Notes under the pieces: generated by a model
Told to the model about the DNA's origin: nothing
Database searches by the model: none
Seen by the model: only the letters and a program-made list of their open reading frames with translations
Assembly (NCBI GenBank): GCA_028818695.1
Contig: JAPPNK010000020.1
Span: 64,632-128,631, forward strand
Reading direction: 5' to 3'
Length of the DNA: 64,000 nucleotides
DNA from: Candidatus Poribacteria bacterium
Lineage (GTDB): Bacteria > Poribacteria > WGA-4E > GCA-2687025
Position numbers and translations under genes: made by a program
In this document: positions 28,010 through 63,433 of the stretch, piece by piece
How the letters are laid out: each line of letters opens with the position of its first letter
Numbering within the stretch: position 1 is the first letter of the stretch

Positions 28010-28036
28010 TCATTCCCGCGCAAGCGGGAATCTAGA
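28010..28036. repeat. Palindromic repeat unit GTCATTCCCGCGCAAGCGGGAATCTAG (family member)
   Basis: Inverted repeat ATTCCCGCG / CGCGGGAAT around a short loop, in the dapA/thioesterase divergent intergenic region; related copies elsewhere in the window. Confidence 0.7.
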
Positions 28037-28129
28037 GGCGCCGCAGAAGACGTCTGCGTTCGCATGCCGACATGTCCCAAATTAAGATGTAAGGTCAGCG
28101 ATAGGTTGACTCAGGCGCCGTTTCTGCGT

Positions 28130-28558
28130 ATGCTTCGCCTTATGGAAGCTTCCGCCTCTCAGCATCGCTTCGTCTGCCCTCTGACGGTCCGAACCTACGA
28201 GCTGGACGGCTTTAGGCATGTGAACAACGCTGTCTTTGTGCAGTATCTGGAGGCGGCGCGCGGCGAGATGATCATTTCCGCCGGGCTGGAGTACGCCGAC
28301 TTTCACCGCTGGGAGGCTTATCCGGTTGTCGCGCGTTTGGAAGCGGAGTATTTCTGCCCCGCCCATGCCGACGACAACCTTGAGATCGAGTGCCGCGTCG
28401 TTGAAACGAAACGAACCCGCTTCACCGTTCAGTACCGCATTCGGCGGATCAAAGACGACGCCCTGATTCTCCGCGCCTCAACCGTCCATGCCTTTGTCCG
28501 TCCGGACGGCAAGCCTGTGCGCGTTCCCGCCCCGTTTCGCGCCGCTTTCGGCTTTTAA
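28130..28558 (+). CDS. Acyl-CoA thioesterase (4HBT / YbgC-like hotdog fold)
   Basis: Hotdog-fold thioesterase-like sequence (VRTYELDGFRHVNNAVFVQYLEAAR); start uncertain (track ORF from 28064). Confidence 0.65.
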   Translation: MLRLMEASASQHRFVCPLTVRTYELDGFRHVNNAVFVQYLEAARGEMIISAGLEYADFHRWEAYPVVARLEAEYFCPAHADDNLEIECRVVETKRTRFTVQYRIRRIKDDALILRASTVHAFVRPDGKPVRVPAPFRAAFGF

Positions 28559-29334
28559 CCGCGCCACAACGAAAAATACCATTCTAGAAGATGACCGCCC
28601 CATCGCCCGCTTACCCAAGCCGCTATGCCCAAAAAAACGCCGTACGGGATCTGTTGACGCCCTCTCAACCGCACAACCGCCAAACCGACGACGCTGCCGA
28701 TCACGGCGCTGAGCGAAATCGTCAGCAGAACAAGGCTCCAGCTCCCCAAAAACAGACCGATCATTCCAATCAGTTTGACGTCGCCGAACCCCATCGCTTC
28801 CCGTCGATACGCCAGGTTGGCGAGCGTCCGAATCAACCAAAGCGAACTGAAGCCGACAGCGCCCGCCGCCCCCGCATCGACAAGCGGCATCCATGCGCCC
28901 GCCAGCGTCGATTCCGCCGCCGCGAAGGTCAACGCCAGCGCCGCCCCTGTTCCCGTTAAAACGTCCGGCAAACGCTCCGTTCGCCAGTCGATGACGCCCA
29001 GCGCGAGCAGCAGCGCTCCAAACAGCGCCGTCCGCGCGCCGTCCAGCGTCGGACCGTCCTCCCATGCCGCCCATGCAAACAGCGCCGCCGCCGTCAGCTC
29101 AACAAGCGGATACCGCAGCGGGATGCGGGCGGAACAGTCGGCGCACCTGCCGCGCAGAAGCAGATAACTGAAAAGCGGGATGTTATGGACGGCGCGCACC
29201 GGCTCTCCGCAGGACGGGCAGTAAGAACGCGGAGGATTCCATGGCGTCTGCCCAAGCGGGATTCGGTGAATGCATACGTTTAAAAAGCTGCCGGCGCACA
29301 ACCCGATCAGCCCGCTAAGGATCGTCAGGGTCAT
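28555..29334 (-). CDS. Prepilin peptidase (A24 family)
   Basis: Start at internal Met MTLTIL; N-terminal Cys-rich zinc motif CPSCGEP...CADC and polytopic membrane domain with GFGDVKL. Confidence 0.8.
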   Translation of the reverse strand: MTLTILSGLIGLCAGSFLNVCIHRIPLGQTPWNPPRSYCPSCGEPVRAVHNIPLFSYLLLRGRCADCSARIPLRYPLVELTAAALFAWAAWEDGPTLDGARTALFGALLLALGVIDWRTERLPDVLTGTGAALALTFAAAESTLAGAWMPLVDAGAAGAVGFSSLWLIRTLANLAYRREAMGFGDVKLIGMIGLFLGSWSLVLLTISLSAVIGSVVGLAVVRLRGRQQIPYGVFLGIAAWVSGRWGGHLLEWYFSLWRG

Positions 29335-29731
29335 ACGGGGGCCACCAGTCGGGGTTTTCGCGGATAGGGGCGGACAGCTCTGCCTCGGCTCCGAGGCGAT
29401 ATTTGTCGGGCGCGCTGTCGTTTTCAGGAGCGATGCCAACCAGCCCGCGCGCGTTGTCAAAAATGAACTGCCCGCCCCATGGCGTCTCAAGCATATTGGG
29501 CGAGTCGAGATACGGCCCGCGCCAGCCCTCCGCGCCTGGATCATTCAGCAGATGATTCGGATCCATGCATTGCCGCCCTGTTTGACGCGCGAACCGCGCC
29601 GCGGCGTCCGAGATCGTTTCCAGGCGCGTTGCCGCCGCGTTCACCTTTCGGCTGTCCATATAAACCGGTATCGTGAACGCCCCCGCCAAGACCGCCGCAA
29701 CAGCCAATACAGCCGCCTTCAAGATTCGCAT
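29315..29731 (-). CDS. GspG-like pseudopilin C-terminal domain protein with Sec-type rather than prepilin-type N-terminus
   Basis: C-terminal block WRGPYLDSPNMLETPWGGQFIF resembles GspG; the N-terminus (MRILKAAVLAVAAVLAGA) lacks the G-F-T-L-I-E prepilin leader. Confidence 0.5.
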   Translation of the reverse strand: MRILKAAVLAVAAVLAGAFTIPVYMDSRKVNAAATRLETISDAAARFARQTGRQCMDPNHLLNDPGAEGWRGPYLDSPNMLETPWGGQFIFDNARGLVGIAPENDSAPDKYRLGAEAELSAPIRENPDWWPPYDPDDP

Positions 29732-30309
29732 TCGTCCAATTTCTCCTTCCACGCGCGCAGAATGTTCAACGCTCCGTCAACATCGCCCTTCCGCAGACGC
29801 TCTAGAGCCGCTTCGTCCGCCTGTCCGCGCGCCTCGCCCATCAAAGCTGCCAGCTCCTCATATTCATGCCCGTACCGTTCTTCAAGTTCCTCCCGCATCT
29901 GCTTCGCCAACGCTGGGCTAAGTCCGCCCGTCGAGACGGCGACCGTCAACGCCCCGCGCTGAACCGCCCCCGGCGTATGGAACGTCGCGTCGTCAAGCGC
30001 ATGGGCGCTGTTGACCCAGATCCCCAAGCGCCGAGCGCAGCGCGCCATCGATTCGTTCACAGCGCGCGAATCGGTCAACGCGAACGCAAGCCGGAAACCG
30101 TCCAGATCGCTCGGCTCAAACGCGCGCCGCAGCCATCGAAACGCGCCGGACGCCTCCAGCTTCGTCAGCCCCTCGTTCAGCGTCGGGCTAACGACGGTCG
30201 CCTTCGCGCCGCATGCCAACAGACGCCGTATCTTCCGCTCCGCCACCTTCCCGCCGCCGGCGACCAGGGCCGCCTCCCCCCGCAGTTTTACAAAAATAGG
30301 ATACATCAA
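29719..30309 (-). CDS. Precorrin-2 dehydrogenase / sirohydrochlorin ferrochelatase (sirohaem synthase N-terminal domain-like)
   Basis: PIFVKLRGEAALVAGGGKVAERKIRRLLACGAKATVV Rossmann-type motif characteristic of the CysG N-domain / Met8 family. Confidence 0.7.
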   Translation of the reverse strand: MMYPIFVKLRGEAALVAGGGKVAERKIRRLLACGAKATVVSPTLNEGLTKLEASGAFRWLRRAFEPSDLDGFRLAFALTDSRAVNESMARCARRLGIWVNSAHALDDATFHTPGAVQRGALTVAVSTGGLSPALAKQMREELEERYGHEYEELAALMGEARGQADEAALERLRKGDVDGALNILRAWKEKLDECES

Positions 30310-30371
30310 AACGGACGCCTCCCTCTGACCTTGTCCTTAAGTTGGACATCCTCAAGAGCCTAATTTCGCTG

Positions 30372-30522
30372 GTAGCCTCTACAGGCGACGATATACGAAA
30401 ATCCTGTTCAAATCGGGCAGATCGTCATTCCCTCGAAAGCGGGAATCCAGAGTTCTCCCAGACAGCCTTCGCATTCTAAAACGGCTCTTTAAAATCAAAA
30501 TCATCGCCTATTAGAGACTGCC
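30372..30522. repeat. MITE-like repeat element, copy A (about 150 bp, short terminal inverted repeats, embeds the palindromic unit at 30424-30450)
   Basis: About 93% identical by eye over 150 bp to the copy at 60361-60538; ends GGCAGCCTCTA ... TAGAGACTGCC are inverted repeats; lies in the divergent intergenic region. Confidence 0.7.
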
Positions 30523-30594
30523 ACTTCGCTCCTTCGGTTGACATGCCGTTCAAAAAAGCGCACCATGTCTCCAACGACCTATTGTAGAGAGCGA

Positions 30595-31617
30595 ATGATG
30601 AACGCGCAACAGACATCTCCCATACCGATCACAATCCTATGCGGATTCCTCGGCAGCGGCAAAACGACTCTCCTGAACCGCATACTCAGCGAAAACAGGG
30701 ACTTAAAAACGGCCGTCATCGTGAACGAATTCGGCGAAATCGGCATCGACAATCAGCTCATCGAAAGCGTGGATGAGCTGAACGGCGTCGTAGAACTCAA
30801 CAACGGCTGCATCTGCTGCACCATCAACGCCGATCTGCTAGAGACCGTTCATAACCTGCTTGAAACGAGAGACGGGCAGATCGATTATATTCTCATCGAA
30901 ACGACCGGGCTTGCGGATCCGCAGCCCGTTGCGCAGACGCTCTGGGTTCCAGAAATCGTCGAAAAGGCGTTCATCGATTCCATCGTTACGATGGTGGACG
31001 CGGTGAATCTGCCGCAGGCGATGGAAGAGACGCGGATCGCCGAAGCGCAGATCGCCTTCGCCGACTTTATCGTTCTCAACAAGGTCGGCGCGGCGAAGAC
31101 GAAATCTGTTCAGCGCATCGAAAAACAGATTCTCGCTCTGAACCCGTATGCGCGCATCCTGAAGACGAACTACGCCGACATCGACCTGAATCTGATTTTG
31201 GACGTCGGCGTCTTTCAGTTGGACGAACCGACCGGCGAAGACGCGCATGAACATGATCATGAGCATGACCACAACCATGATCATGACCATGAACACGAAC
31301 ATGAGCATGACAGCGCGGAAAAAGGGTATGCGTCCGCCTCGTTTGCGTTGGATCGTCCAATGAAGGCGCAGGCGTTTAAATCCTTTTTAGAGCAGATGCC
31401 GCGAACTATTTTCAGGGCGAAGGGCGTACTCTGGTTTTTGGGAGAGGATCGGCGCGCGCATTTCAACCAGGTCGGCAGCAGCGTTATGATGGAATGGGGA
31501 GCAAAATGGGGAGAGACTGCGCAGAGCCAAATCGTGTTCATTGGGCAAAAATTTGACGAGGACGCGCTTCGCAAAAGCCTAGAGAGCTGCCTTGTCGATC
31601 CGCCGGCGCCGCGCTAG
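30595..31617 (+). CDS. CobW/COG0523-family GTPase (putative zinc metallochaperone) with His-rich insert
   Basis: GTPase motifs GFLGSGKTT, CxCC (GCICCT); His/Asp/Glu-rich stretch HEHDHEHDHNHDHDHEHEHEHD; start at internal Met. Confidence 0.85.
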   Translation: MMNAQQTSPIPITILCGFLGSGKTTLLNRILSENRDLKTAVIVNEFGEIGIDNQLIESVDELNGVVELNNGCICCTINADLLETVHNLLETRDGQIDYILIETTGLADPQPVAQTLWVPEIVEKAFIDSIVTMVDAVNLPQAMEETRIAEAQIAFADFIVLNKVGAAKTKSVQRIEKQILALNPYARILKTNYADIDLNLILDVGVFQLDEPTGEDAHEHDHEHDHNHDHDHEHEHEHDSAEKGYASASFALDRPMKAQAFKSFLEQMPRTIFRAKGVLWFLGEDRRAHFNQVGSSVMMEWGAKWGETAQSQIVFIGQKFDEDALRKSLESCLVDPPAPR

Positions 31618-32615
31618 ATTTGACGGCGGCGCAGGCCGTTCCCCGGTCGGTTTGTCAAGATCAGCCGCCCGTTCTTCATCAGCATCGGCTCAAAAGGGTC
31701 GTTGTCGATCAACAGATGCCCGTCCAGGTCCGCATGGTCGGCAAGCGGAGCGATATGCGCCATTGCGGCAACGCCCGCCGAACTCTCAATCATGCATCCC
31801 GTCATGACGCGCATTCCGTATGAGCGCGCCAATCGAGCCGCCGTCAAGACCTCCGTTGGACCGCCGCACTTCGACAGCTTGAGATTCACCCCGTCCACAG
31901 CGCCGGCAAGGGTCGGTATCTCCTTGGCGGAACGGCAGCTCTCATCGGCGAAGATGGGCAGCGGCGACCGCTCCCGCACATACCGCAGCCCGTCGATATC
32001 GTCCGCGCGGACAGGCTGCTCAACCAGCTCAACGCCCAAATCTGCCAGCGCGGCGCACAACTCGACCGCCTCTTCCCGCGTCCATCCCCCGTTTGCATCG
32101 ACCCGCATCGGCTTCTTCGACGCTCCCCGCAGCGCGCGTATCACGTCCAGATCGTTCTTCCCGCCCAGCTTCACCTTCAAGACCGCGTATTCCGCCGCCG
32201 CTTCCGCTTTTTCGAGCATGCGGGCGCGGTCGTCCAGCCCGATGGTGAACGAGGTGGGCGGCATTTCGCTCGGATCGGCGCCCCATAGTTTCCATAGAGG
32301 CGCGCCGAGAGAGCGTCCGAGGCCGTCCCAGAGAGCCGTTTCGAGAGCGCATCGGGCGGGTCTTCCGCCTTTGAAACGGCGCATGACAGACTCGATGGGC
32401 GCGTCGTCGGGCAAGCTTTCCAGCTCGGCGCGGCAGCGTTCAAGATCGTTGACAACGCCCTTAATCGATTCCCCGTAATAGGACCGAGGAGCCGCCTCGC
32501 CGACGCCTCCGCCCGCCCGTACCAGAACCGTTTGGCGCGTGAGGTCCGCGTCGGTTGATGCAATCTTGAACGGATCCCGCAGACGCAGCTCCGCGACCTC
32601 CCATTCCAACTTCAT
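31614..32615 (-). CDS. Dipeptide epimerase (enolase superfamily, L-Ala-D/L-Glu epimerase-like)
   Basis: 333 aa; enolase-superfamily pattern with KVKLG, RVDANGGW and Asp/Glu metal ligands. Confidence 0.75.
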   Translation of the reverse strand: MKLEWEVAELRLRDPFKIASTDADLTRQTVLVRAGGGVGEAAPRSYYGESIKGVVNDLERCRAELESLPDDAPIESVMRRFKGGRPARCALETALWDGLGRSLGAPLWKLWGADPSEMPPTSFTIGLDDRARMLEKAEAAAEYAVLKVKLGGKNDLDVIRALRGASKKPMRVDANGGWTREEAVELCAALADLGVELVEQPVRADDIDGLRYVRERSPLPIFADESCRSAKEIPTLAGAVDGVNLKLSKCGGPTEVLTAARLARSYGMRVMTGCMIESSAGVAAMAHIAPLADHADLDGHLLIDNDPFEPMLMKNGRLILTNRPGNGLRRRQI

Positions 32616-33676: not shown

Positions 33677-33896
33677 CGCGCCTCATCAAAATCAATCATC
33701 GCATTTAATCTTAGCGTATCAGCCGACAATCCTCAAAATATGTCGAGGCAAGACGCCATAAGCTGGGAGGTTGGGGCATGTCGGTATGCGAATCTGGATA
33801 GGATCAAAAAATAAAAATCTCCGTATAAGCGTACTGCCGTCAGGCTAGCGCGCTTGATTTCTTTAGCCGAATCTGCCATCATAGACCCGGTGAGGA

Positions 33897-34409
33897 ATGC
33901 ATATGAAACATGAACATCCCAAAGGAGAACCTAAGCGCATGACATGGCTGCTTTTTGCGCTCATGACCGCTCTGTTCTTCGGTCTTTACGGCGTCTTTTT
34001 GCATACGGGCCAGATCGGCATGAAAGATCCAGACATGGGTCGGTATAAAGCGTTTCTGTTTGTCGGCATCGCATATCTGCTGGCGGCAGTGATCGGATCG
34101 GCGCTGATGCTCCTGGCGGGCGAGGCGTCATGGTCGTTTCCCGCCAAGGGCGCGTTCTGGTCGACCATGGCTGGGTTAGCTGGCGCGTTCGGCGCGTTCG
34201 GCATCCTGTTATCGTTCGGCGCGAAAGGAACCCCCGCAGTCGTCATGTCGATCGTGTTTGCCGGCGCGCCGATTGTGAACGCATTTGCGGCGGCGATTGC
34301 GCATCCTCCTGAAGGCGGCTGGGGGAACGTCCAATGGCCGTTCTACGTCGGAATACTGCTGGCGGCGGCTGGGGGATGTCTTGTGACGCTGTATCGACCT
34401 GGCTCCTGA
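33897..34409 (+). CDS. Small integral membrane protein, function unknown
   Basis: 170 aa with four or five hydrophobic segments; start may be the internal Met at 33939. Confidence 0.5.
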   Translation: MHMKHEHPKGEPKRMTWLLFALMTALFFGLYGVFLHTGQIGMKDPDMGRYKAFLFVGIAYLLAAVIGSALMLLAGEASWSFPAKGAFWSTMAGLAGAFGAFGILLSFGAKGTPAVVMSIVFAGAPIVNAFAAAIAHPPEGGWGNVQWPFYVGILLAAAGGCLVTLYRPGS

Positions 34410-34418
34410 GGCGTCGCG

Positions 34419-38795: not shown

Positions 38796-38848
38796 GCCGC
38801 CTTTTTTAAAAACAAAATGCGAAATGCGGACGTCGGCCGCTGGACTCT

Positions 38849-38872
38849 GGATTCCCATTTGCGCGGGAATGG
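38849..38872. repeat. Palindromic repeat unit variant GGATTCCCATTTGCGCGGGAATGG
   Basis: Same ATTCCC...GGGAAT inverted-repeat architecture as the other units, opposite orientation, in the intergenic region upstream of the sulfatase gene. Confidence 0.55.
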
Positions 38873-38975
38873 CGGTTTGCCGGCAACCAAGCTTGCGGAA
38901 CGGGGCGTTTCAGCTTAGTACTAATGCGCGCTGGCGCCCAGAGATACTGACTGCCCGACCTCATAAGGAGACCGC

Positions 38976-40430: not shown

Positions 40431-40499
40431 AAAATGGATGCGTTCTGCGGGGCGTTGTTGTAAACTAACAACGTTGACATCTGTAGCGGGGGCAATGCC

Positions 40500-43775: not shown

Positions 43776-43796
43776 GTCGGCATGCGCTGCGCGGTC

Positions 43797-43831
43797 GGGA
43801 GCTCTTTAACCGATAATCTAAAGAGCTCTCC
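43797..43831 (+). terminator. Stem-loop after flotillin operon (putative terminator or attenuator)
   Basis: Inverted repeat GAGCTCTTTA ... TAAAGAGCTC (10-11 bp stem) just after the stop; no clear U-tract, so weak. Confidence 0.3.
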
Positions 43832-47937: not shown

Positions 47938-47949
47938 GGATGCGCTTAG

Positions 47950-50900: not shown

Positions 50901-51522
50901 GATTGAACGCATGGGGCGCGTCAACGAGATGGCCGCCGAAGAGTATGAGGATCACCGGGGGCGCCTTGACCAGCTGCTAGATCAGCGGGACGATCTGACA
51001 AAGGCGCGCAATTCGATACGCTCATCCATACGCAAGATCGACGCGGCGTCTCAGGAGCGGTTTGCGGAGTCGTTTGAGCAGATTCGCGGGAACTATCAGG
51101 AGGTGTTTGCGCAGCTGTTCGGCGGCGGGGAGACGGAGCTGCGGCTGACCGACCCTGCGAATCCGCTGGAATCGGGGGTGGAGATCATGGCGTCGCCGCC
51201 GGGCAAGCGCCCGGAGAGCATCGCGGCGCTGTCGGGCGGGGAGCGGTCGCTGGTGGCAATCGCGCTGCTGTTTGCCGTCTTCAAGCTGCGCCCGTCGCCG
51301 TTCTGCGTGCTGGACGAGGTGGACGCGGCGCTGGACGAGGCGAACGTGCTGCGTTTCACCAACCTGATTCAAGATTACGCCAAGACGACGCAGTTTATCG
51401 TCATCACGCACAACAACCGGACAATGGAGAAAGCGGACATCCTCTACGGCGTCACGATGGAGAAAGCGGGCGTTTCAAAGATCTTGTCGATCCCGCTTTC
51501 CCCTGCCGAAGAGGCTCCCTAG
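47950..51522 (+). CDS. smc: Chromosome segregation protein SMC
   Basis: 1190 aa; Walker A GPNGCGKSN, long coiled coils, hinge, signature LSGGERSL and Walker B CVLDEVDAALD. Confidence 0.95.
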   Translation: MRLKSVKLRGFKSFAESAAIETGGGINVIVGPNGCGKSNISDAIRWALGERSPRSLRCAKMQDALFNGGSNQKPANAAEVSILFSNEEKSLPIDSPMVTVTRRLRRSGESSYLLNGVVCKRQDIYELFMDTGVGRNAYSLMEQGNIDRLLTTRPEDRRSFFDEVAGITKYKYQKKEALKKLESADQNLVSINAMIVEMESRTEALRRQAESALALRERKEILRILEIELARRRWLAAQARLTEEEEAYETADLTIKTSSRELERLGSIEEEEARRRDQLASKAQTARGHVQKIEVEIARVEGDIGFQKDRRQRLMNNREGADADIEKLRKQVEQISEQIAEKERGREQAEIELQTDKGRLKGRTRALEALDKQIADSTLDIDQLERRIVDIDRERMALENSLSSISGRAENSAARHTSLEERIARIEASLKEARSTLERLQDRSKNLSADGAVNAVKLTELEEQISATESALRKAESERRGFQEQLAKSAAEARTLENLASSYRGYYQGVTAVARVGRESPETLPGVCGVVAELISCEEMHERAIEAALGSAAQNIIMETAEDAKRAIQFLRQHRAGRATFLPLDILYSRYRKDAHLLRYPGAVGWAPDLIRTDARYWPAVENLLGGVIVMETLDDAIRLSRRERTRFRLATLEGELVYSGGAISGGREQRRSGGGLLQRPRELEALKAKIGQLSASLQEKERQRVKLESDLEQMKKERADRQEKLQSAAVENASLEKEIEQTAARQKDLEDELEIEQDARENLEEDAESIAQSREEKETELADKEKELKTLQRRASNLKEQRAADSQSRSELQEAVSALKVDIASRQGKLDGFEGEMEALKNRQEDARRQIADNERAAQDHDAAMEELEAALDKAQRNFLILESKRMEHAQEADQLEEERAELETEGAKRQKTMRRLEGELERAKTVRYDHDVKMVRLRERAAKTAERIQEKYRVPVDDLQPNEEAPENDAEAAEEAKRIAAEIERMGRVNEMAAEEYEDHRGRLDQLLDQRDDLTKARNSIRSSIRKIDAASQERFAESFEQIRGNYQEVFAQLFGGGETELRLTDPANPLESGVEIMASPPGKRPESIAALSGGERSLVAIALLFAVFKLRPSPFCVLDEVDAALDEANVLRFTNLIQDYAKTTQFIVITHNNRTMEKADILYGVTMEKAGVSKILSIPLSPAEEAP

Positions 51523-51531
51523 GTCCGCTGA

Positions 51532-51564
51532 CCGTCATTCTTCCCGCGCGGGCGCGGGGAGAAC
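51532..51564. repeat. Degenerate palindromic repeat / hairpin CCGTCATTCTTCCCGCGCGGGCGCGGGGAGAAC
   Basis: Variant of the ATTCCCGCG...CGCGGGAA palindrome immediately after the smc stop, between convergent genes; may serve as terminator. Confidence 0.5.
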
Positions 51565-51610
51565 ATCCCAGATGTGGATAGCGAGGGTGGACGAGGCGAC
51601 TCTTTTCAAT

Positions 51611-53053
51611 CTACCGACCTGCCGAGGCGGGAGCGTTTTCCTTCTTCGGTTGAGTTGGCGCCATGAGCGGCTCCATCGGTTGCTCCCAGTTGACGCGGTC
51701 GTCCTTGAAGCCGTACAATTCCATATGCCCCCTGAAGTTGTCCTCGAAGGGGCCGTCCATGAATCTAGAGAGGCTCGCCTCGCTTTGGGCGACGCGCTTG
51801 GCGTCGTCGCTGGCGTTGATGTCGGTCAAGGTGGAGCGCCAAACCTTCGCCGCGCACAGATGGTGCAGGTAGTACGCCAGCTTCTCCATGTCGGCGCGAA
51901 ACTCCGCCCGTTTCTCCTTAGGCGGCTGATCCAACTGCTCCATCTTTTCGGCGTCCCAGAGAAACATGTTCGTGGAGATCATATGCGCATCGACCGATCT
52001 GTAGGCGTTTTTTAGGACCTCGTCTGCGCAGCGGATTTCCTCGCGCTTCTCCCAGTCGAGCCGCGGTTTTAAAAACTTGGGCGACTGCCTCGCCGCGTCC
52101 CATTGGGCGCGCAGGCCGTCCATTCGCTCTTCCGCCTCAGCCGTCTCTTTGTCGGAGGCTCCCGCGATGAGCGCATCGCGCCAGTCGCGCGCCGCCAAGC
52201 TCCAGCGCAAAGCCGCCTGCGCGACCGCCTTATGCTGGGCGATCCTCTCGGCGTTCCATCTGCGTTCTGGATAGTACCAGCCTCGCCGGCGCAGCGACAG
52301 GTCCCGATATGGACTTTCCCAGGTGTAAACGGCGTATTTCTGCGTTTCGCGCAGGGCGCGTTCCATCTCCCGTTCGGCGCGCTCCAGCGGCGAACCGGCG
52401 TAATCGGCAGGCTCGAACGTGTCGGACGGCTCCCATCCCCAAACGAGAACGCCCGCCCGATTCTTCACCGTCCAGAACGTTTCGCGCGCTTCCTGAACGG
52501 CGGCGAGCAGCTCCTCTTCCGCGCCGTTTCCTTGTTCCAGCTCTCTCTCGGCGGCGCGCAGGCGGTCGAACGCCTCTAGATAGGCGGCGCGCCCGACCGA
52601 CTCGGTTTCCCGTTCCGCCGGGAGAGGCGGAGGCGTCCATTCCGACAACGCTTGGACGGCGCTTCCGAGGGCGTTGTACGCGTTCATCTCGGCTTGACGC
52701 GCCGTTTCGAGAGCGGCGTCTCTCTTTTCAAACGAAACCGATTCGTCCTGGAGGACGGTCAGCAGAGCCGTTTCGGCTGTCAACAGCTCCCGCTCCGCCG
52801 CCGCATATTCCTCTAAGGATGTCCGCGCCTTTTCATGCGCTTCGACTCGCTCAGGGGGCCATCTTGACATGTCAAGCTCAGCCCCAAGGCGCTCGGAAAG
52901 CAGATAAGCGCCTTTCAAACGCCTCTCAACGCTCTGAACAGCGGACGCGGAATCTTCAACAGCTGCCTCGTCTACCGGCCATGAACGGAACATGAAACAA
53001 CCGGCCAACATTGTCAACAGCGCAAGCGGAACCGATATATGCGCGGTTTTCAT
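51611..53053 (-). CDS. Lipoprotein with coiled-coil, function unknown
   Basis: 480 aa; lipobox-like LAGC at N-terminus; Glu/Arg/Ala-rich helical sequence. Confidence 0.5.
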   Translation of the reverse strand: MKTAHISVPLALLTMLAGCFMFRSWPVDEAAVEDSASAVQSVERRLKGAYLLSERLGAELDMSRWPPERVEAHEKARTSLEEYAAAERELLTAETALLTVLQDESVSFEKRDAALETARQAEMNAYNALGSAVQALSEWTPPPLPAERETESVGRAAYLEAFDRLRAAERELEQGNGAEEELLAAVQEARETFWTVKNRAGVLVWGWEPSDTFEPADYAGSPLERAEREMERALRETQKYAVYTWESPYRDLSLRRRGWYYPERRWNAERIAQHKAVAQAALRWSLAARDWRDALIAGASDKETAEAEERMDGLRAQWDAARQSPKFLKPRLDWEKREEIRCADEVLKNAYRSVDAHMISTNMFLWDAEKMEQLDQPPKEKRAEFRADMEKLAYYLHHLCAAKVWRSTLTDINASDDAKRVAQSEASLSRFMDGPFEDNFRGHMELYGFKDDRVNWEQPMEPLMAPTQPKKENAPASAGR

Positions 53054-53297
53054 AAGCGCTCCTTCCGTTGCATCATAACATGCGCGCGTCGTTTGCGCAA
53101 CAGCTTTCGGCGATGTCGGCGCTTGAGTGGGGGCATGGTGCGCGAGAACGGCGGTCTGCCGGGCGGCTGCAGTTCAGCCTAAGAAACTTGGTCAACGGCA
53201 TTTGACAAACTCCCCCCCGCGCGTTAAACTATGAATCAAGCAGGGCGGATAACGGCATCCGTCAAGAGCGCGCAACTGCAATCAGAAAGGGTTGTTC

Positions 53298-54749
<1,452 letters not shown>

Positions 54750-54773
54750 ACTAGACGGGAGAAACATACAGCG

Positions 54774-55535
54774 ATGCTTGAAATCAAAGACCTATGGGCG
54801 GGCGTTGACGGGGAGCCGATCCTGAAGGGTTTGTCGCTCACGGTGAACGCCGGCGAGGTCCATTCCATCATGGGTCCGAACGGATCCGGCAAAAGCACCT
54901 TGGCGCATGTGTTAGCCGGCAAGGAGGAATACGAGGCGACCGACGGAAGCGTCCAGTACCTCGGCCAAGATCTGTTGGAGATGGCGCCTGAGGAGCGCGC
55001 ATGCGAGGGCGTCTTTCTGGCGTTCCAATACCCTGTCTCTATACCCGGCGTCAGCAACACCTACTTTTTGAAAGCGGCCATCAATGCGAAGCGGAAATAC
55101 AACGGCGATCAAGAGATTGACGCTTTTGAGTTCATGCAGATGGTTAAGGAAAAGTCGAAGGCGCTGAACATCGATACGGCTCTGCTGAACCGCCCCGTCA
55201 ACGACGGCTTTTCCGGCGGCGAAAAGAAACGGAACGAGATTTTTCAGATGGCGATGTTAGACCCGCGCCTCGCGATCATGGACGAGACCGATTCGGGGTT
55301 GGACATTGACGCGCTCAAGGTGGTTGCGGACGGCGTCAACAGTCTGCGCGGGGACGGCCGAGGATTCATCGTCATCACCCACTACCAGCGGCTTTTGAAC
55401 TACATTGTGCCGGATTTTGTTCATGTGCTGAACGACGGCAAGATCGTCCGCTCCGGCGGAAAGGATCTGGCGCAGGAGCTGGAAGAAAAAGGGTACCGTT
55501 GGCTAAAAGAGCGGGATGAAGCCCATGGCGGATGA
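54774..55535 (+). CDS. sufC: Fe-S cluster assembly ATPase SufC
   Basis: Walker A GPNGSGKST, signature FSGGEKKR, Walker B AIMDETDSGLD. Confidence 0.95.
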   Translation: MLEIKDLWAGVDGEPILKGLSLTVNAGEVHSIMGPNGSGKSTLAHVLAGKEEYEATDGSVQYLGQDLLEMAPEERACEGVFLAFQYPVSIPGVSNTYFLKAAINAKRKYNGDQEIDAFEFMQMVKEKSKALNIDTALLNRPVNDGFSGGEKKRNEIFQMAMLDPRLAIMDETDSGLDIDALKVVADGVNSLRGDGRGFIVITHYQRLLNYIVPDFVHVLNDGKIVRSGGKDLAQELEEKGYRWLKERDEAHGG

Positions 55536-56810
55536 TCTGAAGCAACGCCTCTTGAACGGCATTCAAAACGCTTCAAGCCTCTCTGTGCGCAGGAAAAGCG
55601 CGCTGGACGCCTTTCGGGGCATGCAATTCCCGACGACGAAGACGGAGGAGTGGCGGTTCACCAACCTGCGCAATTTTCTTCAAACGCCGTTTGAACCCGC
55701 TCCAGAGGCGCGCCTTTCGCTGGATGAGCTGAACGCGGTTGAATTCGCGGACCTCGGCTTTCCGCGCGCCGTGTTCGTGAACGGGCGTTACGCGCCGGAG
55801 CTGTCGAACGCGGAGGAGGCGGACGGGATCTCAACGGCTCCGTTGAACGAGGACGCGGAGCTCGGATCGGCAGACGAATCGGAAAGCGACATCTTCGACG
55901 CGCTGAACGCGGCGATCGCAAGCGAAGGCGTTGTCGTACGCGCCGCCCCTGGAAAGGCGGTCGAAACGCCCCTGCATCTGGTGTACCTCACATCGCCATC
56001 CAACGGCAGCCCTGCGGCTTGCCACCCGCGTACGCTCATCGCCGCCGGCGGCAACAGCCAGCTGACCGTCATCGAGTCGCATCTTTCCTGCGGCGGATCG
56101 AACGGCGCGCCTTATTTCACCAACCCTGTGACGGAGATTGTGTGTCAGCGCGGCGCGGTCGTCGACCATTACAAACTGCAGGCTGAAGCGGAGGGGGGGT
56201 TCCACATCGGTTCAACCCGTTCGCGCCAAGAACGGGACAGCTCCTTTGCGACGCACACCATCACTCTCGGCGCGGGGCTTCTTCGCAACAACCTGACAGC
56301 GACCTTGGACGGACCCGGCGCCTCGGCGACGCTCCATGCGTTCTATCTGGCGACCGGGAATCAGCATGTCGACCATTTCACAACGCTCGTTCACGCGCGC
56401 GAGAACTGCAACAGCCGCGAGGTGTATAAAGGCGTTTTGGACGACGCCTCGCGCGCCGTTTTTCATGGGCGCATACTCGTCAAGCAGGATGCCCAAGACA
56501 CCGATTCGTATCAGCAAAATGAGAATCTGCTGTTGACGAAGCGGGCGCGCGTCAACACGAAGCCGCAGCTGGAAATCTACGCTGATCAGGTCAAATGCAG
56601 CCACGGGGCGACCGTTGGGGAGCTGGACGAAGAGGCGATGTTTTATCTGCGGTCGCGCTGCATCGGGGAGCCGGCGGCGCGCAGCCTGCTCATCTACGCT
56701 TTCGCCAGCGAGGTGATTGACCAGATAAAGCCTGAACCGCTGCGTTCCAAGCTTCAAGACGAATTGTTTGCCTGGCTGCCTGAAGGCGCCGCGGCGCGGG
56801 AGGCGTTCTG

Positions 56811-56811
<1 letters not shown>
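55516..56811 (+). CDS. sufD: Fe-S cluster assembly protein SufD
   Basis: 431 aa; position between sufC and sufS and SufB/D-family C-terminal domain. Confidence 0.85.
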
Positions 56812-58055
<1,244 letters not shown>

Positions 58056-58063
58056 GAAGGCGC

Positions 58064-58516
58064 ATGTCCGAACTGAACGAGCTGTACCAGCAGACGATCC
58101 TTGACCATAACCGAAACCCGCGCAACTACGGCGTCCTAGAAGACGCGGACGGAGAAGCGGACGGCCACAACCCGCTCTGCGGCGACAAGGTGCGGATTTA
58201 TATCGCGTTAGAAGGCGACACGATACGCAGCGCTCGGTTCGAAGGCGTTGGATGCGCCATCTCGACCGCCTCCGCGTCGCTTATGACTGAAGCGCTGGAA
58301 GGCAAAACGCTTGACGAGGCGGAAGAGCTGTTCGCCGGTTTTCAAGAGCTCGTAACGACGGGGCAGGACGCGATGGACGCCATCGAGTCGCTGGGCAAGC
58401 TTGCTGTGTTTGCGGGCGTCCGCGCCTATCCGATGCGCGTCAAATGCGCGACGCTCGCATGGCACACTTTCAAAGCGGCCCTCAATCAAGAGACGGCGAC
58501 CGTCACCACGGAATGA
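58064..58516 (+). CDS. sufU: SUF system NifU-family Fe-S scaffold (SufU-type)
   Basis: 150 aa; NPLCGD, GCAIS and C-terminal Cys typical of SufU/IscU-like proteins. Confidence 0.8.
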   Translation: MSELNELYQQTILDHNRNPRNYGVLEDADGEADGHNPLCGDKVRIYIALEGDTIRSARFEGVGCAISTASASLMTEALEGKTLDEAEELFAGFQELVTTGQDAMDAIESLGKLAVFAGVRAYPMRVKCATLAWHTFKAALNQETATVTTE

Positions 58517-58539
58517 TCTGAACTGGACGAGATCGAACG

Positions 58540-59808
58540 ATGTCGGAACTGATGCGCTGGGCGGAGAGGCTCAAAAAAGTACCTGAATCGCGGAGAGGCT
58601 TTTTGTCAAAGATTGGCAAAGGCGCGATTCTTGCCGGGATGGGAGCTTTCGGCGCAGGATGCGAATCGTTCGACCGCGGCGTCTTGGGGCGGGAGCTGAT
58701 ACCGATTGTCCTTGAAGACGCGCGGCTGGCGGGGCTGCCAAAGCCGGACATGACCGTCCATACCGAATTCCCGTTCAACGGCGAATTCGCCCCTAGCCTT
58801 CTGAACGACGATGTCACCCCCTCCGAGCGGCACTTCGTCCGAAATAACAGCGGCATTCCTGAACGCGCCGTCAACCAAGACTTTGCAGGCTGGAAGCTGA
58901 CCATCGATGGGGAAGTGAAGAAACCGCTCTCGCTATCGATGAGAGAGCTGAACCAGTTTCCGCAGACGACGATGCAGGCGGTGTTGGAGTGCGCCGGGAA
59001 CGGGCGCAGCCTCTTTGAGCCGAAGGTGGGCGGAACGCCTTGGCGGCGGGGCGCCGTCGCATGCAGCGAATGGAGCGGACCGCGCCTGCGCGATCTGCTT
59101 CAAGCCGCCGGCGTGAAATCGAGCGCCGTTTATCTCGGCTGCTACGGCGAAGATATTCCGAACGACGGAAGCGAGCCGTTCTCGCGCGGTATCCCCATCG
59201 AAAAAGCGCTGGACGAACACACGCTCATTGCGACGATGATGAACGGAGAGCCGCTGCCGGCGGCGCATGGTTTCCCTGCGCGCCTGATCGTGCCAGGTTG
59301 GATCGGCAGCGCCATGCAGAAGTGGCTCACACGCATCTGGGCGCGCGACATCGTCCATGATTCCAGTAAAATGACCGGGTATTCTTACCGCGTCCCCGCG
59401 TATCCGACGGCGCCCGGCGAAACGCCGCCGGTAGAGGATATGGTTATCGCGACGGCGTGGAAGGTGAAGTCGCTCATCACGCGCCCGCAGGAGTATGTTG
59501 AACTAAAACCCGGGGCGTCGCTCTCGGCGAGAGGGCATGCCTGGGCGGGCGAGAACGAGATCGCGAAGGTCGCCGTCTCGACCGATTTTGGGCAGCAGTG
59601 GCAGGAGGCGCGCCTGACGCCGCCTGCCAACAGATACGCTTGGTACCACTGGGAGGCGGACCTGTCGTTTCCCATCCGCGGCTACTATGAGATCTGGGCG
59701 CGCGCCTACGACGACAAGGGAGCCGCGCAGCCTTTCAAGCAGCCCTGGAACCCGAAAGGGTATCTAGGCAACGTGATTCACAGGGTTCCAGTTCTCGTTG
59801 ACAGTTAA
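58540..59808 (+). CDS. Sulfite oxidase-family molybdopterin oxidoreductase with Tat signal
   Basis: Twin-arginine leader RRGFLSKIGKGAILAG; molybdopterin-binding domain (VLECAGNGRS, ARLIVPGWIG) and C-terminal dimerisation-like domain. Confidence 0.75.
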   Translation: MSELMRWAERLKKVPESRRGFLSKIGKGAILAGMGAFGAGCESFDRGVLGRELIPIVLEDARLAGLPKPDMTVHTEFPFNGEFAPSLLNDDVTPSERHFVRNNSGIPERAVNQDFAGWKLTIDGEVKKPLSLSMRELNQFPQTTMQAVLECAGNGRSLFEPKVGGTPWRRGAVACSEWSGPRLRDLLQAAGVKSSAVYLGCYGEDIPNDGSEPFSRGIPIEKALDEHTLIATMMNGEPLPAAHGFPARLIVPGWIGSAMQKWLTRIWARDIVHDSSKMTGYSYRVPAYPTAPGETPPVEDMVIATAWKVKSLITRPQEYVELKPGASLSARGHAWAGENEIAKVAVSTDFGQQWQEARLTPPANRYAWYHWEADLSFPIRGYYEIWARAYDDKGAAQPFKQPWNPKGYLGNVIHRVPVLVDS

Positions 59809-59823
59809 ACGAAAGAGGCAAGC

Positions 59824-60198
59824 ATGGCAAAAAAAGCGCAGTTGACCGACCTTGTCGGCGCCGATCAGATCGAAGAGGAGATCGTTGCGGCGCTGAAGAC
59901 GGTGTACGACCCTGAGATACCTGTCAACATCTACGATATGGGTCTCATCTACGAAATTGAGGTGGACAAGGCGGGCGCGGCGACGGTGAACATGACCCTG
60001 ACAAGCCCCGCATGCCCCGTCGCGCAGTCGCTTCCGCTGGCGGTGAAGGACAAGGTCGCCTCGGCTCCGGGCGTGACGGAGGCGCAGGTGAATGTGGTCT
60101 GGGATCCGCCGTGGACAATGGAGCGGATGTCGGACGAAGCGAAGTTTGAGCTGGGGCTTATGGATGTGGAGCCTGTGGAGCGGGATCGTCGGCGTTAG
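59824..60198 (+). CDS. sufT: DUF59 / MIP18-family Fe-S assembly protein (SufT-like)
   Basis: 124 aa; VYDPEIPVNIYDMGLIY...TLTSPACP typical of DUF59 proteins; last gene of the suf cluster. Confidence 0.6.
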   Translation: MAKKAQLTDLVGADQIEEEIVAALKTVYDPEIPVNIYDMGLIYEIEVDKAGAATVNMTLTSPACPVAQSLPLAVKDKVASAPGVTEAQVNVVWDPPWTMERMSDEAKFELGLMDVEPVERDRRR

Positions 60199-60234
60199 GG
60201 ATTTTTAAGAAACGCCCAGCGCCCAAAACCGCCG

Positions 60235-60283
60235 TCATTCCCGCGAAGCATGTCCTCGTTAAAACGGGGAGCGGGAATCCAGA
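60235..60283. repeat. Expanded palindromic repeat unit (GTCATTCCCGCG + 27-nt insert + GCGGGAATCCAG)
   Basis: Same arms as the 27-bp unit with a longer loop; immediately upstream of MITE-like copy B. Confidence 0.6.
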
Positions 60284-60360
60284 TTCAAGCAGACAGCGTC
60301 CGCGTTCACAACCAGATTTATCCTACTCAAGGGTTAAGTTGAGCGCTCCGTTTATGCAAC

Positions 60361-60538
60361 AGGCGTCTTCTCCAGGCAGCCTCTACAGGCGATGATGTAC
60401 GAAAATCCTGTTCAAATCGGGCAGATCGTCATTCCCGCGAAAGCGGGAATCCAGGTTCTCCCAGACAGCCTCCGCATTCTAAAACGGCTCTATAAAATCA
60501 AAATCATCGTCATATAGAGACTGCCTGGAGAAGACGCC
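60361..60538. repeat. MITE-like repeat element, copy B (about 178 bp, 25-bp terminal inverted repeats, embeds the palindromic unit at 60428-60454)
   Basis: Termini AGGCGTCTTCTCCAGGCAGCCTCTA ... TAGAGACTGCCTGGAGAAGACGCCT are inverted repeats with one mismatch; interior about 93% identical to copy A at 30372-30522. Confidence 0.75.
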
Positions 60539-60694
60539 TAATCGTCATTTCCGACGACGCCCAGGTCTCTAATGATGACCTTAACATCGGAAGCGTCGGG
60601 GGACGCAGTTGAGTACCGCTTTTCGTGGTCGGCGTAGTGCGGCGTCCACAGCTGATTTAACCGCAAAAAGCTTCTTGTTGCGCGCAGCGCCTGC

Positions 60695-60949
60695 TCAATC
60701 CTTGTCCGCAGAGTACGCCTTTCTCGCTTCTCTCTCTTTTTCTGCCATCAGCTCGCGGATGCGCCTTAGGTCTAGGCGGGCGCCCTTTGCCCATATCTGC
60801 GCCTCATCAGAATGCAAAAACGCGCGCGCGTCCTCCCGCATCTCCGCCGGCGCGGACGAGCCTGGCAGCGCGTCTCGGCACGCCGCCGCCATCACCGCCT
60901 GCGCCATCGTTCCGTACCGTTCCCAGGTTTCTTTCCGCTGCGTATCCAT
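60695..60949 (-). CDS. Small hypothetical protein (84 aa), coding status uncertain
   Basis: Only sizeable ORF in the 0.9-kb non-coding stretch between sufT and the kinase gene; no motif. Confidence 0.25.
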   Translation of the reverse strand: MDTQRKETWERYGTMAQAVMAAACRDALPGSSAPAEMREDARAFLHSDEAQIWAKGARLDLRRIRELMAEKEREARKAYSADKD

Positions 60950-61145
60950 TGTTTTCTCCTTCGCTCGCTTGCTTTTTAAACGGCGAAAGGGCGCGATTCG
61001 ATTACAGAAAAACGACCTAAAGTGCTGTTATTTTTTCTCGGCGTACAGCGTCGGAATCAAGAAATGAGTTTAGAGAAGTTAAAATTCTGGCGTTGCCGCT
61101 TGAGTCGGGTATGTCAGGACATGGAAGCAGCTCGTTATTGCCGAT

Positions 61146-62189
61146 CTAGCGGAGATCGGCGGCTTCAAATTCAGCCCAGCGCTCTCGTATCTGCGCCGGC
61201 GAGGCGGTTCCTGTTGTTCCGATCTGCTGAACGACGATCGACGCGGCGATGTTGCCGAGCTCCGCCGCCTCATGCATCAACGCGCCGCAGCAGAGCGCCG
61301 ACGCGATCGCCGACGACGCGCTGTCGCCCGCCCCTACAATATCGATCTCCCCCGTCAACCGCATCGCCGGGCTGACGCGGAAGCGCATGCCGTCGTACGT
61401 CAAGACGCCCTCTTCGCCCATCGTCACAAAGAGCGGTTTGCCTGTGCGCTGCGCGAGCGTCTCTGCGCACTCCTTGACCGCCGCGGCCGAAGGCTCTCCG
61501 CCGCTCCAGTCTGGATAGACGGCGCGGACTGCCTCATGCCGGTTCGGCTTGATGTAAATGCCGCGGTATTGTCCAATGCGTTCGCGGCTGTCGCCGATAA
61601 AGATCGTTTCAGGATAGGCGCGGGCGAGCGCGGCGATCTCGGCGCGCGCCTTGTCCGTCACAACGCCGCAATTCGGCTCCGAGACCTGGTCCATAACGAC
61701 AACGGCGTCGGCGGACGCAACGGCTCCCCGCAGCCGCTCAATGAGCTCCCCCTCCACTTCGGGCGGCGTCGGCGCGCGGTTCTTGATGTCCTGGCGGTTC
61801 ATCTCCGTTTCCGAGCCGTCTTCCGAAAGGCGCATCGGCTTTGTGTAGGTCGGCGTCATGCGCTTCGGCGTTTCCACAAGATATTCTGTTGAGACGTTGA
61901 TTCCGTTCAGCCCGCGCTTCAGTTCATAACCTTCCCCGTCCCGACCGATGATTCCGACAGCAAGGACGGTTCCAACGCCGAGAGCGCTCAGGTTGGCGGC
62001 GATGGTGCCGGCGGCACCGGGAGAGAGCCGCTTCGAGACGACCTGATGCGCTGTTAAGCCTGTTTCGATGGACGGCTCGTCCAAAGACGGGTCAATGATG
62101 AGGTACTTGTCGAGAAAAAAGTCGCCGACAACCGCGATCGTCTTGCGCGGAAGGCGCGTCAGAATGCGCTCCAAGAGTTCTCTTTTCAT
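61146..62189 (-). CDS. PfkB-family sugar/sugar-phosphate kinase (HldE kinase-domain-like)
   Basis: 347 aa; N-terminal VGDFFLDKY and C-terminal DIVGAGD motifs of the ribokinase/PfkB superfamily. Confidence 0.75.
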   Translation of the reverse strand: MKRELLERILTRLPRKTIAVVGDFFLDKYLIIDPSLDEPSIETGLTAHQVVSKRLSPGAAGTIAANLSALGVGTVLAVGIIGRDGEGYELKRGLNGINVSTEYLVETPKRMTPTYTKPMRLSEDGSETEMNRQDIKNRAPTPPEVEGELIERLRGAVASADAVVVMDQVSEPNCGVVTDKARAEIAALARAYPETIFIGDSRERIGQYRGIYIKPNRHEAVRAVYPDWSGGEPSAAAVKECAETLAQRTGKPLFVTMGEEGVLTYDGMRFRVSPAMRLTGEIDIVGAGDSASSAIASALCCGALMHEAAELGNIAASIVVQQIGTTGTASPAQIRERWAEFEAADLR

Positions 62190-62193
62190 GCGG

Positions 62194-63330
62194 TTAGACG
62201 AATCTGCCGCAGAAATGGCAGACGCGCCGAAGCGTCGCCAGGCCGACCGTCTCCGTCAGCGCGGGGACGTCCGGCTCATGCGCCGAGACGCATGTTTTGG
62301 ATCGGCAGACAGGGGCGGCATGCGTTTGCGCCTCCGTCTTTTTGGGTTCAAACGGGTTGCTCGGCGCCCTGCCGAGAGCCAGCGCCAGCAGCGCCATTCG
62401 CACCGGCACGCCGTTTGAGGACTGCTCAAAATAGACAGCGCGCGGGTCGTCGTCCAGCTCGCGCGCCAGCTCGTCCACGCGCGGAAGCGGATGCAGCGCC
62501 AAGCAGGTCGGCTTCGCCCGCGCAATCAGCGCCGCGTCAATGCGGTATTGACTCGCAATCCGCTGTATCTCCTCGGCGTCCAGATCGTCCGGCAGCCGTT
62601 CTTTTTGAAGGCGGTTCACATACAGAGCATCCAGGTCTTCAATCACATGCCCAGGATGGCGCGCGCGAGACACCTTCGCGCCGTACTGCTGATCTAGACG
62701 CCACATTTCCTCTTCAGGAAGCTCAAGACCTTCCGGGGCGATCAGAACGATGTTGACGTCAAACGCCGCCAAGCCGTACACCAGCGAATGCGCCGCCCGC
62801 CCAAAACGAAGATCGCCGCAAACCCCTACCGTCATTCCCGACAGATTTTCCCGCGCCTTCCAGAGCGTGTAGAGGTCGGTCAAGGTCTGCGTCGGATGCT
62901 GATTTGCGTTGTCGCCCGCGTTGATGACCGGTACGGTTGAATGCAGCGCCGCGAGCCGCGCCGCGCCCGCCCAAAAATGCCGGATGACCAGCACATCCGC
63001 GTAGTTGCAGAGCATATGAATCGTGTCGGCGAGCGTCTCTTTTTTGGCAAACGAGGTAGAATTTGGGTCGGCGAATCCCAGCACATTGCCGCCTAATCTG
63101 AACATGGCGCTCTCAAACGAAAGGCGCGTTCGCGTGCTGGGTTCATAAAACATCGCGCCCAAAATGCGCCCTTTGCACAGGTCGGAACCCATCTCGCGCA
63201 TGATCTCCATATCGCGGGCAAGCTCAAAAAAGCGGAGCATCTCCGCGCGGGTCAGGTCCTCAATGCGTATAAAGTTCTCCACAACGGCTCTCCAGAGACT
63301 GCGCCTGCTGTTTAAACGAGTCGCGCGCAT
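62194..63330 (-). CDS. pyrB: Aspartate carbamoyltransferase catalytic chain with fused C-terminal PyrI-type zinc domain
   Basis: STRTR, HPTQ and HPLP motifs; C-terminal 55 aa extension with C-x4-C-x23-C-x2-C spacing and CVSAHEP block resembling the PyrI zinc domain (CISHAEP). Confidence 0.85.
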   Translation of the reverse strand: MRATRLNSRRSLWRAVVENFIRIEDLTRAEMLRFFELARDMEIMREMGSDLCKGRILGAMFYEPSTRTRLSFESAMFRLGGNVLGFADPNSTSFAKKETLADTIHMLCNYADVLVIRHFWAGAARLAALHSTVPVINAGDNANQHPTQTLTDLYTLWKARENLSGMTVGVCGDLRFGRAAHSLVYGLAAFDVNIVLIAPEGLELPEEEMWRLDQQYGAKVSRARHPGHVIEDLDALYVNRLQKERLPDDLDAEEIQRIASQYRIDAALIARAKPTCLALHPLPRVDELARELDDDPRAVYFEQSSNGVPVRMALLALALGRAPSNPFEPKKTEAQTHAAPVCRSKTCVSAHEPDVPALTETVGLATLRRVCHFCGRFV

Positions 63331-63409
63331 GCTTCAGTTTCAGGAAATGGAGCGGGCGCTTGAGCTGGGTTGGAGGACTCTAAACGCGAACGGTTTCGGC
63401 GTCTCTCCT

Positions 63410-63433
63410 CTGGATTCCCGCGGGAAAGACCCG
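63410..63433. repeat. Truncated palindromic repeat unit CTGGATTCCCGCGGGAAAGACCCG
   Basis: Partial ATTCCCGCG / GGGAA inverted repeat in the pyrB / glycosyltransferase divergent intergenic region. Confidence 0.4.

Follow-up and report, generated by a model that had tools for sequence, protein, structure and literature searches.

Judged by their sequence, the palindromic repeats dispersed between the genes of a 64,000-nt stretch of Candidatus Poribacteria DNA (GenBank assembly GCA_028818695.1, contig JAPPNK010000020.1, positions 64,632 to 128,631 of the forward strand; hereafter the window) are members of the NTS/SRM family, the same motif family as in Neisseria. We consider it probable, at roughly 0.78 for both parts taken together, that these repeats are bound and nicked as single-stranded DNA (ssDNA) by a small GIY-YIG nuclease, Ssn, and that they have spread mainly as cargo of miniature inverted-repeat transposable elements (MITEs). 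Poribacteria are a candidate phylum of sponge symbionts that is represented by metagenome-assembled genomes (MAGs) only. The scaffold matching the window is ROBB21-1 scaffold_43 of a metagenome assembly, and the host MAG is a Candidatus Poribacteria from a sponge metagenome. The LepA and SMC proteins of the window are deposited in GenBank as MDE0021497.1 and MDE0021523.1, both from a Candidatus Poribacteria MAG.

The NTS was described by Chenal et al. (Nat Commun 2025, PMC11893778) as a longer, oriented 28-nt element, CGTCATTCCCGCGMAVGCGGGAATCYRG, to which about half of the neisserial dRS3 repeats belong, and NTS-like sequences named Ssn-related motifs (SRM) were found across many bacteria. 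SsnA is a 94-aa single-domain GIY-YIG nuclease that binds and cuts the motif in ssDNA only and on one strand only, and leaves RNA alone. The GTC before the palindrome serves cutting and the C after the palindrome serves binding, and mutation of the Neisseria residues Y6, Y17 or E64 abolishes cutting. Ssn is defined by the CDD family cd10448, and copies of the motif typically stand on both sides of its gene. In N. meningitidis, the action of SsnA lowers transformation by motif-bearing DNA. The same paper draws a parallel between SRM and repetitive extragenic palindromes (REPs) and reports that dRS3 is used by a phage recombinase (PMC11893778). Poribacteria are unnamed in its text, and we found no paper tying Poribacteria to Ssn.

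A search of the window with the NTS consensus CGTCATTCCCGCGMAVGCGGGAATCYRG revealed exact matches at 28008 and 60427, a copy with one mismatch at 30423 and a minus-strand copy with three mismatches at 38847. No NTS match was found in 100 randomized windows, even with up to three mismatches allowed. The SRM pattern HGTCWYN(0-2)YYVSBRHN(0-5)WNVSBRGN(0-2)RNCYNB matched at 28008 and 60427, and the degenerate copies failed it. The flanks GTC...C were present at 28008, 30423, 60233 and 60427, with GCC at 38847 and GTCT at 63408. The dRS3-like core, ATTCCC-N(6-34)-GGGAAT, occurred five times in the window (28012, 30427, 38851, 60237 and 60431; N8 in four copies and N30 in one) vs 0.19 expected from shuffles, and none of 100 window shuffles reached a count of five. 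The minus strand has a sixth unit, at 63408-63431, in which the motif has lost its loop. Searches with the half-sites alone (GTCATTCCC and GCGGGAATCCAG, mismatches allowed) stayed at chance level and were uninformative, and an Rfam search of the whole window at the gathering threshold returned tRNA-Leu only.

The oriented 28-nt element reads CGTC-ATTCCCGC-GNAA-GCGGGAAT-CYAG, with an 8-bp stem formed by ATTCCCGC and GCGGGAAT and a loop of 4 nt, GCAA or GAAA. Folded as ssDNA, the exact copies at 28008 and 60427 reached -9 kcal/mol with a z-score of about -3.5, and the copy with a loop insert at 60233 reached -11.4 kcal/mol (z -2.6); at 30423 and 38847, where the copies are mutated, folding was no better than that of shuffles. 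Gene calls covered 41.7 kb of the window region, where the intergenic share is about 6-7%, and every unit of the window was intergenic. The units at 28008, 30423 and 63408 lie between divergent gene starts, and those at 38847, 60233 and 60427 follow gene ends.

An earlier note on this DNA had described a dispersed, intergenic, hairpin-forming repeat family, and this description is borne out by the enrichment in the window, the folds and the gene calls. The hairpins are also oriented, with GTC and C flanking the palindrome asymmetrically in the intact copies. The literal arms given for the family, ATTCCCGCG...CGCGGGAAT, had no match in the window, and the real stem is the one above. The hairpin was said to be stable, which holds for the exact and loop-insert copies but not for those at 30423 and 38847. 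Six of the seven units listed there form one family. The remaining one, a hairpin at 51533, was tried as a member and rejected: it fails the SRM pattern and is unique, and because no second copy was present in the related sequence fetched, its membership is unproven. The host composition is indeed unlike that of Neisseria, at about 59% G+C in the window. The host, a member of the Poribacteria, is unrelated to Neisseria. However, taking the dRS3 likeness as an analogy only was too cautious, because the copies match the 28-nt NTS that encloses dRS3, flanks included.

The motif is abundant in a related genome. The sister-species reference was OY762492.1, a Candidatus Poribacteria chromosome of 3.95 Mb that is 88-93% identical to the window and whose 8-kb blocks include L182, L201 and L205, cited below. 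A genome scan for a lineage-specific NTS-plus-tail pattern, using one genome per species (596 Gb; counts are lower bounds), found at least 45 matches in 33 separate 8-kb blocks across OY762492.1, and the chance expectation estimated from the information content of the pattern is about 0.004 per 4-Mb genome. The other 66 of the 99 scan matches listed were single occurrences in unrelated genomes, as chance predicts over 596 Gb. The 33 blocks hold at least 70 oriented cores and at least 40 NTS with no more than one mismatch. As a side observation, the NTS in these blocks are oriented 33 plus vs 37 minus overall, and 1 plus vs 11 minus beyond 3.0 Mb of the chromosome; the latter may be a replication-strand bias, in a sample that is biased and clustered.

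The copies of the motif are set in larger sequence modules. Type A elements were found in nine full copies of 166-168 bp, one in the window and eight in OY762492.1, with 26-bp terminal inverted repeats (TIRs). Most of the copies in OY762492.1 have duplications of 7-9 bp (AGAGAAA, TAAACTCC, CAGGGGAAC, TTATTTC and TGATTTG). Type D elements are 151-156 bp long, with TIRs unlike those of type A and 8-bp target duplications, and one of them lies within the end of a type A element, with CGTAAGGT as its duplication. The TIRs, the uniform length, the target duplications and the lack of coding capacity identify types A and D as MITEs with the NTS at their centre. In addition, three half elements in the window consist of an NTS and a right arm without the left end, and the sister genome contains further tail modules as well as tandem arrays of 100-105 bp. 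Two MITE families whose ends are unrelated share the NTS core, as do the arrays, the half units and at least two further tail modules. We propose that in the Poribacteria lineage the motif multiplied mainly as MITE cargo, and that it also serves as a joint where modules shuffle.

In OY762492.1, an IS1595-family transposase gene (L201 395-1333) lies 56 nt from the end of a type A MITE. Elements of the IS1595 family, as known from ISfinder, make target duplications of about 8 bp. A comparison of the ends of the IS1595-like gene with the MITE ends found no matching terminal repeats.

The elements of the window, with their parts and relics, are the following.

27931..28098, plus strand: full-length type A MITE, 168 bp, with TIRs CTGACCTCATGCTGAAAGTTGGGACA ... 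TGTCCCAAATTAAGATGTAAGGTCAG and a central NTS
28008..28035, plus strand: NTS, exact (28/28) to CGTCATTCCCGCGMAVGCGGGAATCYRG, stem ATTCCCGC/GCGGGAAT, loop GCAA
30325..30348, plus strand: relic type A left terminal repeat (CTGACCTTGTCCTTAAGTTGGACA), adjoining the type D element
30371..30522, plus strand: type D MITE, 152 bp, TIR GGYAGCCTCTACAGGCGA / TCGCCTATTAGAGACTGCC
30423..30450, plus strand: NTS with one mismatch (stem G>T), 27/28 to the consensus
38813..38874, minus strand: decayed half unit, NTS at 38847-38874 (three mismatches, GTC>GCC) plus a partial right arm
60233..60343, plus strand: half unit, NTS with loop insert plus a variant right arm, without the left arm
60375..60525, plus strand: second copy of the type D MITE, 151 bp, 93-95% identical to the first
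60427..60454, plus strand: NTS, exact (28/28), loop GAAA
63359..63431, minus strand: decayed half unit, NTS without loop and inner stem (GGTCTTTCCCGCGGGAATCCAG), degenerate right arm
12468..12513, plus strand: orphan right-arm relic without NTS, upstream of tRNA-Leu
51533..51572, plus strand: separate GC-rich hairpin, of which only the outer flanks (CGTCATTC..., ...ATCCCAGA) are NTS-like

The type A element at 27931..28098 sits between the divergent dapA and thioesterase genes, and as ssDNA it folds as a whole to -41.6 kcal/mol (z -6.4). The type D element at 30371..30522 is flanked by the 8-bp target duplication ATTTCGCT/ACTTCGCT and by the divergent cysG-N and cobW-like genes. The half unit at 38813..38874 is placed between co-directional genes for an FtsX-like permease and a sulfatase, and that at 60233..60343 is directly 3' of a SufT-like gene; the NTS of the latter (60233-60284) has a nested hairpin insert of 22-24 nt in its loop. 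In the sister strain, the second type D copy is flanked by the 8-bp target duplication CGGAGAAG/TGGAGAAG, one copy of which is inverted in the window. The half unit at 63359..63431 is flanked by the divergent pyrB gene and a gene for a 520-aa protein. Where the window has the relic at 12468-12513, two full NTS elements occupy the corresponding site of the sister species. The hairpin at 51533..51572 is placed between the convergent SMC gene and a gene for a 480-aa protein. An 84-aa ORF at 60695-60949 on the minus strand was called in all assemblies and has no family match; it is placed between the twin NTS region and a PfkB-family sugar kinase gene with a weak rfaE-domain match.

A candidate partner gene was found in the sister genome. 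A tblastn search over the OY762492.1 blocks revealed one small GIY-YIG gene, L182 2872-3180, encoding 102 aa. This gene is bracketed by plus-strand NTS at 2483 and 2772 upstream and minus-strand NTS at 3243, 3343 and 3443 downstream. The 90%-identity cluster of the L182 protein includes MDE0021019.1, annotated as 'GIY-YIG nuclease family protein [Candidatus Poribacteria bacterium]', a protein of 94 aa on a 238-kb contig that is 91% identical to the OY762492.1 orthologue. Its accession number is 478 before that of the window LepA and 504 from that of the window SMC. Along the window the accession numbers advance by one per gene (by 26 from LepA to SMC, over a span of about 26 genes), and MDE0021019.1 is therefore very probably encoded in the same MAG as the window. 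By Pfam, the Poribacteria protein has a GIY-YIG domain alone. Residues Y7, Y18, R28 and E65 are invariant across its relatives, and Y7, Y18 and E65 correspond to Neisseria Y6, Y17 and E64.

The association of gene and motif was also found outside the sister genome. In L228, a contig of 798 bp from the metagenome of a second sample, a minus-strand NTS lies 39 nt after the ssn stop codon and a degenerate copy lies upstream. In L008, an unrelated 3.98-Mb contig (ERZ25039495), there are two ssn genes, each bracketed by NTS. These are tandem paralogues (6001-8078) tightly bracketed by inverted NTS; the called ORFs are of 107 aa, and since they begin inside the upstream motif, their N-terminal 'MSFPRRRESR' is probably translated repeat. 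In L007, from a Poribacteria genome of another lineage (GCA_042571955.1), an ssn gene is flanked by a variant motif, TGTCATTCCAGCGAAGGCTGGAATCCAG, at 107-134 and 547-574. Both stem arms of this variant (ATTCCAGC...GCTGGAAT) are altered together so that pairing is kept, which, as far as these sequences go, looks like co-evolution of nuclease and motif. The generic NTS core was also seen in at least 120 viral contigs (L009-L128), with ssn-like genes in three of them (L011, L045 and L103). The ssn homologues in the protein database are mostly on contigs under 3 kb. The gene is therefore easily lost from binned genomes.

Insertion elements also use the motif. OY762492.1 contains a 1.54-kb element with a 378-aa IS110-family transposase (PF01548 and PF02371; DEDD_Tnp_IS110 and Transposase_20), which splits an NTS at CGTCATT^CCCGCG twice, at L201 1473-3009 and L205 670-2216, in surroundings that differ. 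The copies share 91% identity. In its 5' non-coding end, the L201 copy has a stretch of 10 nt identical to the left flank of its own target; this stretch differs in the L205 copy, whose target flank differs too. Both copies have an 8-nt identity to the right half of the target. These identities at the 5' end are suggestive of guide segments of a bridge RNA, and an Rfam search of the element for a bridge RNA gave chance-level matches only. IS110 elements such as IS621 and ISPpu9/10 insert into repeats (REPs), and their recombinases are guided by bridge RNAs. Of the viral contigs, seven have distant IS110-like genes near an NTS at the end of the contig; these are probably filamentous prophages of Neisseria.

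Taken with the Neisseria work, the mechanism that we favor would run as follows. The strand with the forward motif would turn single-stranded in transforming or conjugative DNA, during replication or during repair, and the 8-bp stem and tetraloop would form on the exposed strand. A single-domain GIY-YIG Ssn of about 100 aa, encoded elsewhere in the genome, would bind the hairpin. By analogy with Neisseria, the C after the palindrome would serve binding and the GTC before it cutting, and Ssn would nick the single strand a few bases upstream of the motif. As an outcome, recombination around the marked loci may be restricted or shaped.

Several points weigh against this interpretation. No GIY-YIG ORF was found in the window or within 8 kb past its end by motif search, tblastn or gene calls, and MDE0021019.1 is assigned to the MAG of the window by accession proximity only. 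Ssn is defined by cd10448, whereas the Poribacteria protein is confirmed at the level of the Pfam GIY-YIG domain only; its size, its lone domain and the NTS around its gene agree with membership of that family. OY762492.1, at 88-93% identity, is a different species from the window, yet it holds the clearest evidence. Three of the six copies in the window are degenerate and would probably not serve as substrates. Finally, we infer from the Neisseria work and the gene association that the Poribacteria Ssn would bind and cut these copies and have an effect in the cell, and the biological role would be an extrapolation from Neisseria.

Other explanations account for parts of these data. The repeats could simply be the interior of MITEs moved by a DDE transposase, the link to Ssn being incidental. 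This would suit the clear TIRs and 7-9 bp duplications of types A and D, the nesting of type D in type A and the IS1595-family transposase gene beside a type A element in the sister genome. We nevertheless consider it unlikely, because what is conserved between unrelated modules and between phyla is the 28-nt core: it agrees 28/28 with that of Neisseria and flanks ssn in several lineages, and the ends of the IS1595-like gene do not match those of the MITEs. Alternatively, the motif might exist mainly as an IS110/Piv-type attachment site, as dRS3 does for neisserial filamentous prophages. Two independent IS110 insertions at one point in the NTS, with their 10-nt and 8-nt target identities, and the IS110-like genes on viral contigs with terminal NTS are consistent with such a site. 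However, these two insertions compare with at least 70 motif copies, no IS110 gene was found in the window, and an attachment site accounts for use of the motif, not for its multiplication or its conservation where such elements are absent. It is very unlikely as the main reason for the motif; as a secondary use, it is compatible with the explanation by Ssn and MITEs. The suggestion of the earlier note that such repeats can be targets of recombination or transposases is relevant here, in view of the IS110-family insertions inside NTS in the sister genome.

The earlier note had also raised a RAYT-type, IS200-like partner and a function as terminators or mRNA stabilizers, neither of which was supported. 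Propagation as REPs or bacterial interspersed mosaic elements (BIMEs) by a REP-associated tyrosine transposase (RAYT) of the IS200/IS605-like kind would agree with short intergenic palindromes that cluster into mosaics, but the motif matches the NTS and has no GTAG/CTAC head, and the gene that it brackets encodes a small GIY-YIG protein. No Y1 transposase was present among the Pfam-marked gene calls in about 50 kb around the window, and we regard this origin as extremely unlikely. A role as transcription terminators or stabilizers of mRNA 3' ends deserves hardly any more credence. The hairpins are stable and intergenic, and those at 38847, 60233 and 60427 follow gene ends; however, no unit has a T-run after the stem on either strand, and the units at 28008, 30423 and 63408 lie between divergent starts. 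In the scanned stretch 51000-64000, none of the terminator-like calls coincided with a unit; these calls numbered 18 vs 14.9 expected, about as many as chance would give. RNA is not a target of the Neisseria enzyme.

Comparison with strains 98% identical to the window revealed recent changes at the repeats. One strain has a 94-bp unit (7 nt, the NTS and the right arm) that the window scaffold lacks, and GTC stands at either junction. In the 28008 copy, two strains differ by a clean 22-nt indel located between GT and C, and the extra 22 nt resemble, in reverse, the loop insert of the 60233 copy. The latter copy differs in another strain by a 7-nt indel and substitutions, and the stem G>T at 30423 is private, with the consensus G in the other strain. 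Eight nucleotides (60526-60533) beside the right end of the second type D copy are inverted in the window compared with the sister strain L005, so that the target duplication reads as an inverted repeat; the inversion could be genuine or could have arisen in assembly. One reading of the 94-bp unit with its GTC junctions, together with the half units, which we put forward tentatively and find doubtful, is that an NTS with its right arm might itself be mobile, without need of TIRs. If Ssn were to drive such movement through hairpin cutting, it would act in a transposase-like manner that would form a new mechanistic class.

Compared with known systems, the Poribacteria repeats are closest to NTS/SRM and SsnA, with which they share the 28-nt sequence, the oriented flanks, the hairpin, the multiple copies almost all intergenic, a single-domain GIY-YIG gene of about 95-102 aa between inward-facing motifs, and symbiont hosts. 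They differ in the Poribacteria host and in the location of the motif inside target-duplicating MITEs, a setting that PMC11893778 does not describe. With dRS3 and the Neisseria intergenic mosaic elements (NIMEs) they share the ATTCCC-N8-GGGAAT core, variable modules of 50-150 bp joined at hairpins, and insertion by an IS110/Piv-type recombinase. Unlike those elements, they belong to another phylum with 59% G+C, their modules (types A to D) are specific to the lineage and bear no relation to RS units, and TIRs and target duplications mark two of the modules as true MITEs. REP/BIME and RAYT systems are similar in their clustering extragenic palindromes, a small protein acting on ssDNA hairpins and their use as IS110/IS1111 insertion sites, but the Poribacteria motif has no GTAG head and the protein has a GIY-YIG fold, not HUH-Y1. 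The elements inserted in the NTS resemble the IS110 repeat-inserters in their DEDD transposase, one fixed position in the palindrome, the absence of a long duplication and the identities to the target half at the 5' end, whereas their bridge RNA is only putative, with no Rfam match, and the elements are in the sister genome. The NTS/SRM kind of repeat is already known. What is new here is the Ssn/NTS system in Poribacteria, its packaging in MITEs, the strain polymorphism and the homing of IS110 elements.

These results extend the Ssn/NTS system, which was characterized only in 2025, to sponge symbionts of an uncultured candidate phylum. The motif that would be recognized there agrees base for base with that of Neisseria, which points either to a nuclease and motif that spread together by horizontal transfer or to a protein that constrains the motif very tightly. 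Interchangeable enzymes are predicted for Poribacteria and Neisseria, which would be useful for the ssDNA tools under development from this family. The repeats also break short-read assemblies of such MAGs; Logan contigs SRR10996925_21 and _2644 from the same sample end inside the type D copies, at window positions 30482 and 60463. MITE cargo provides a concrete route for the multiplication of the motif, and IS110-type homing to the hairpin is seen outside Neisseria. If Ssn were to drive movement of the NTS with its right arm, three systems, namely Ssn, DDE-type MITEs and an IS110 recombinase, would converge on one 28-nt hairpin.

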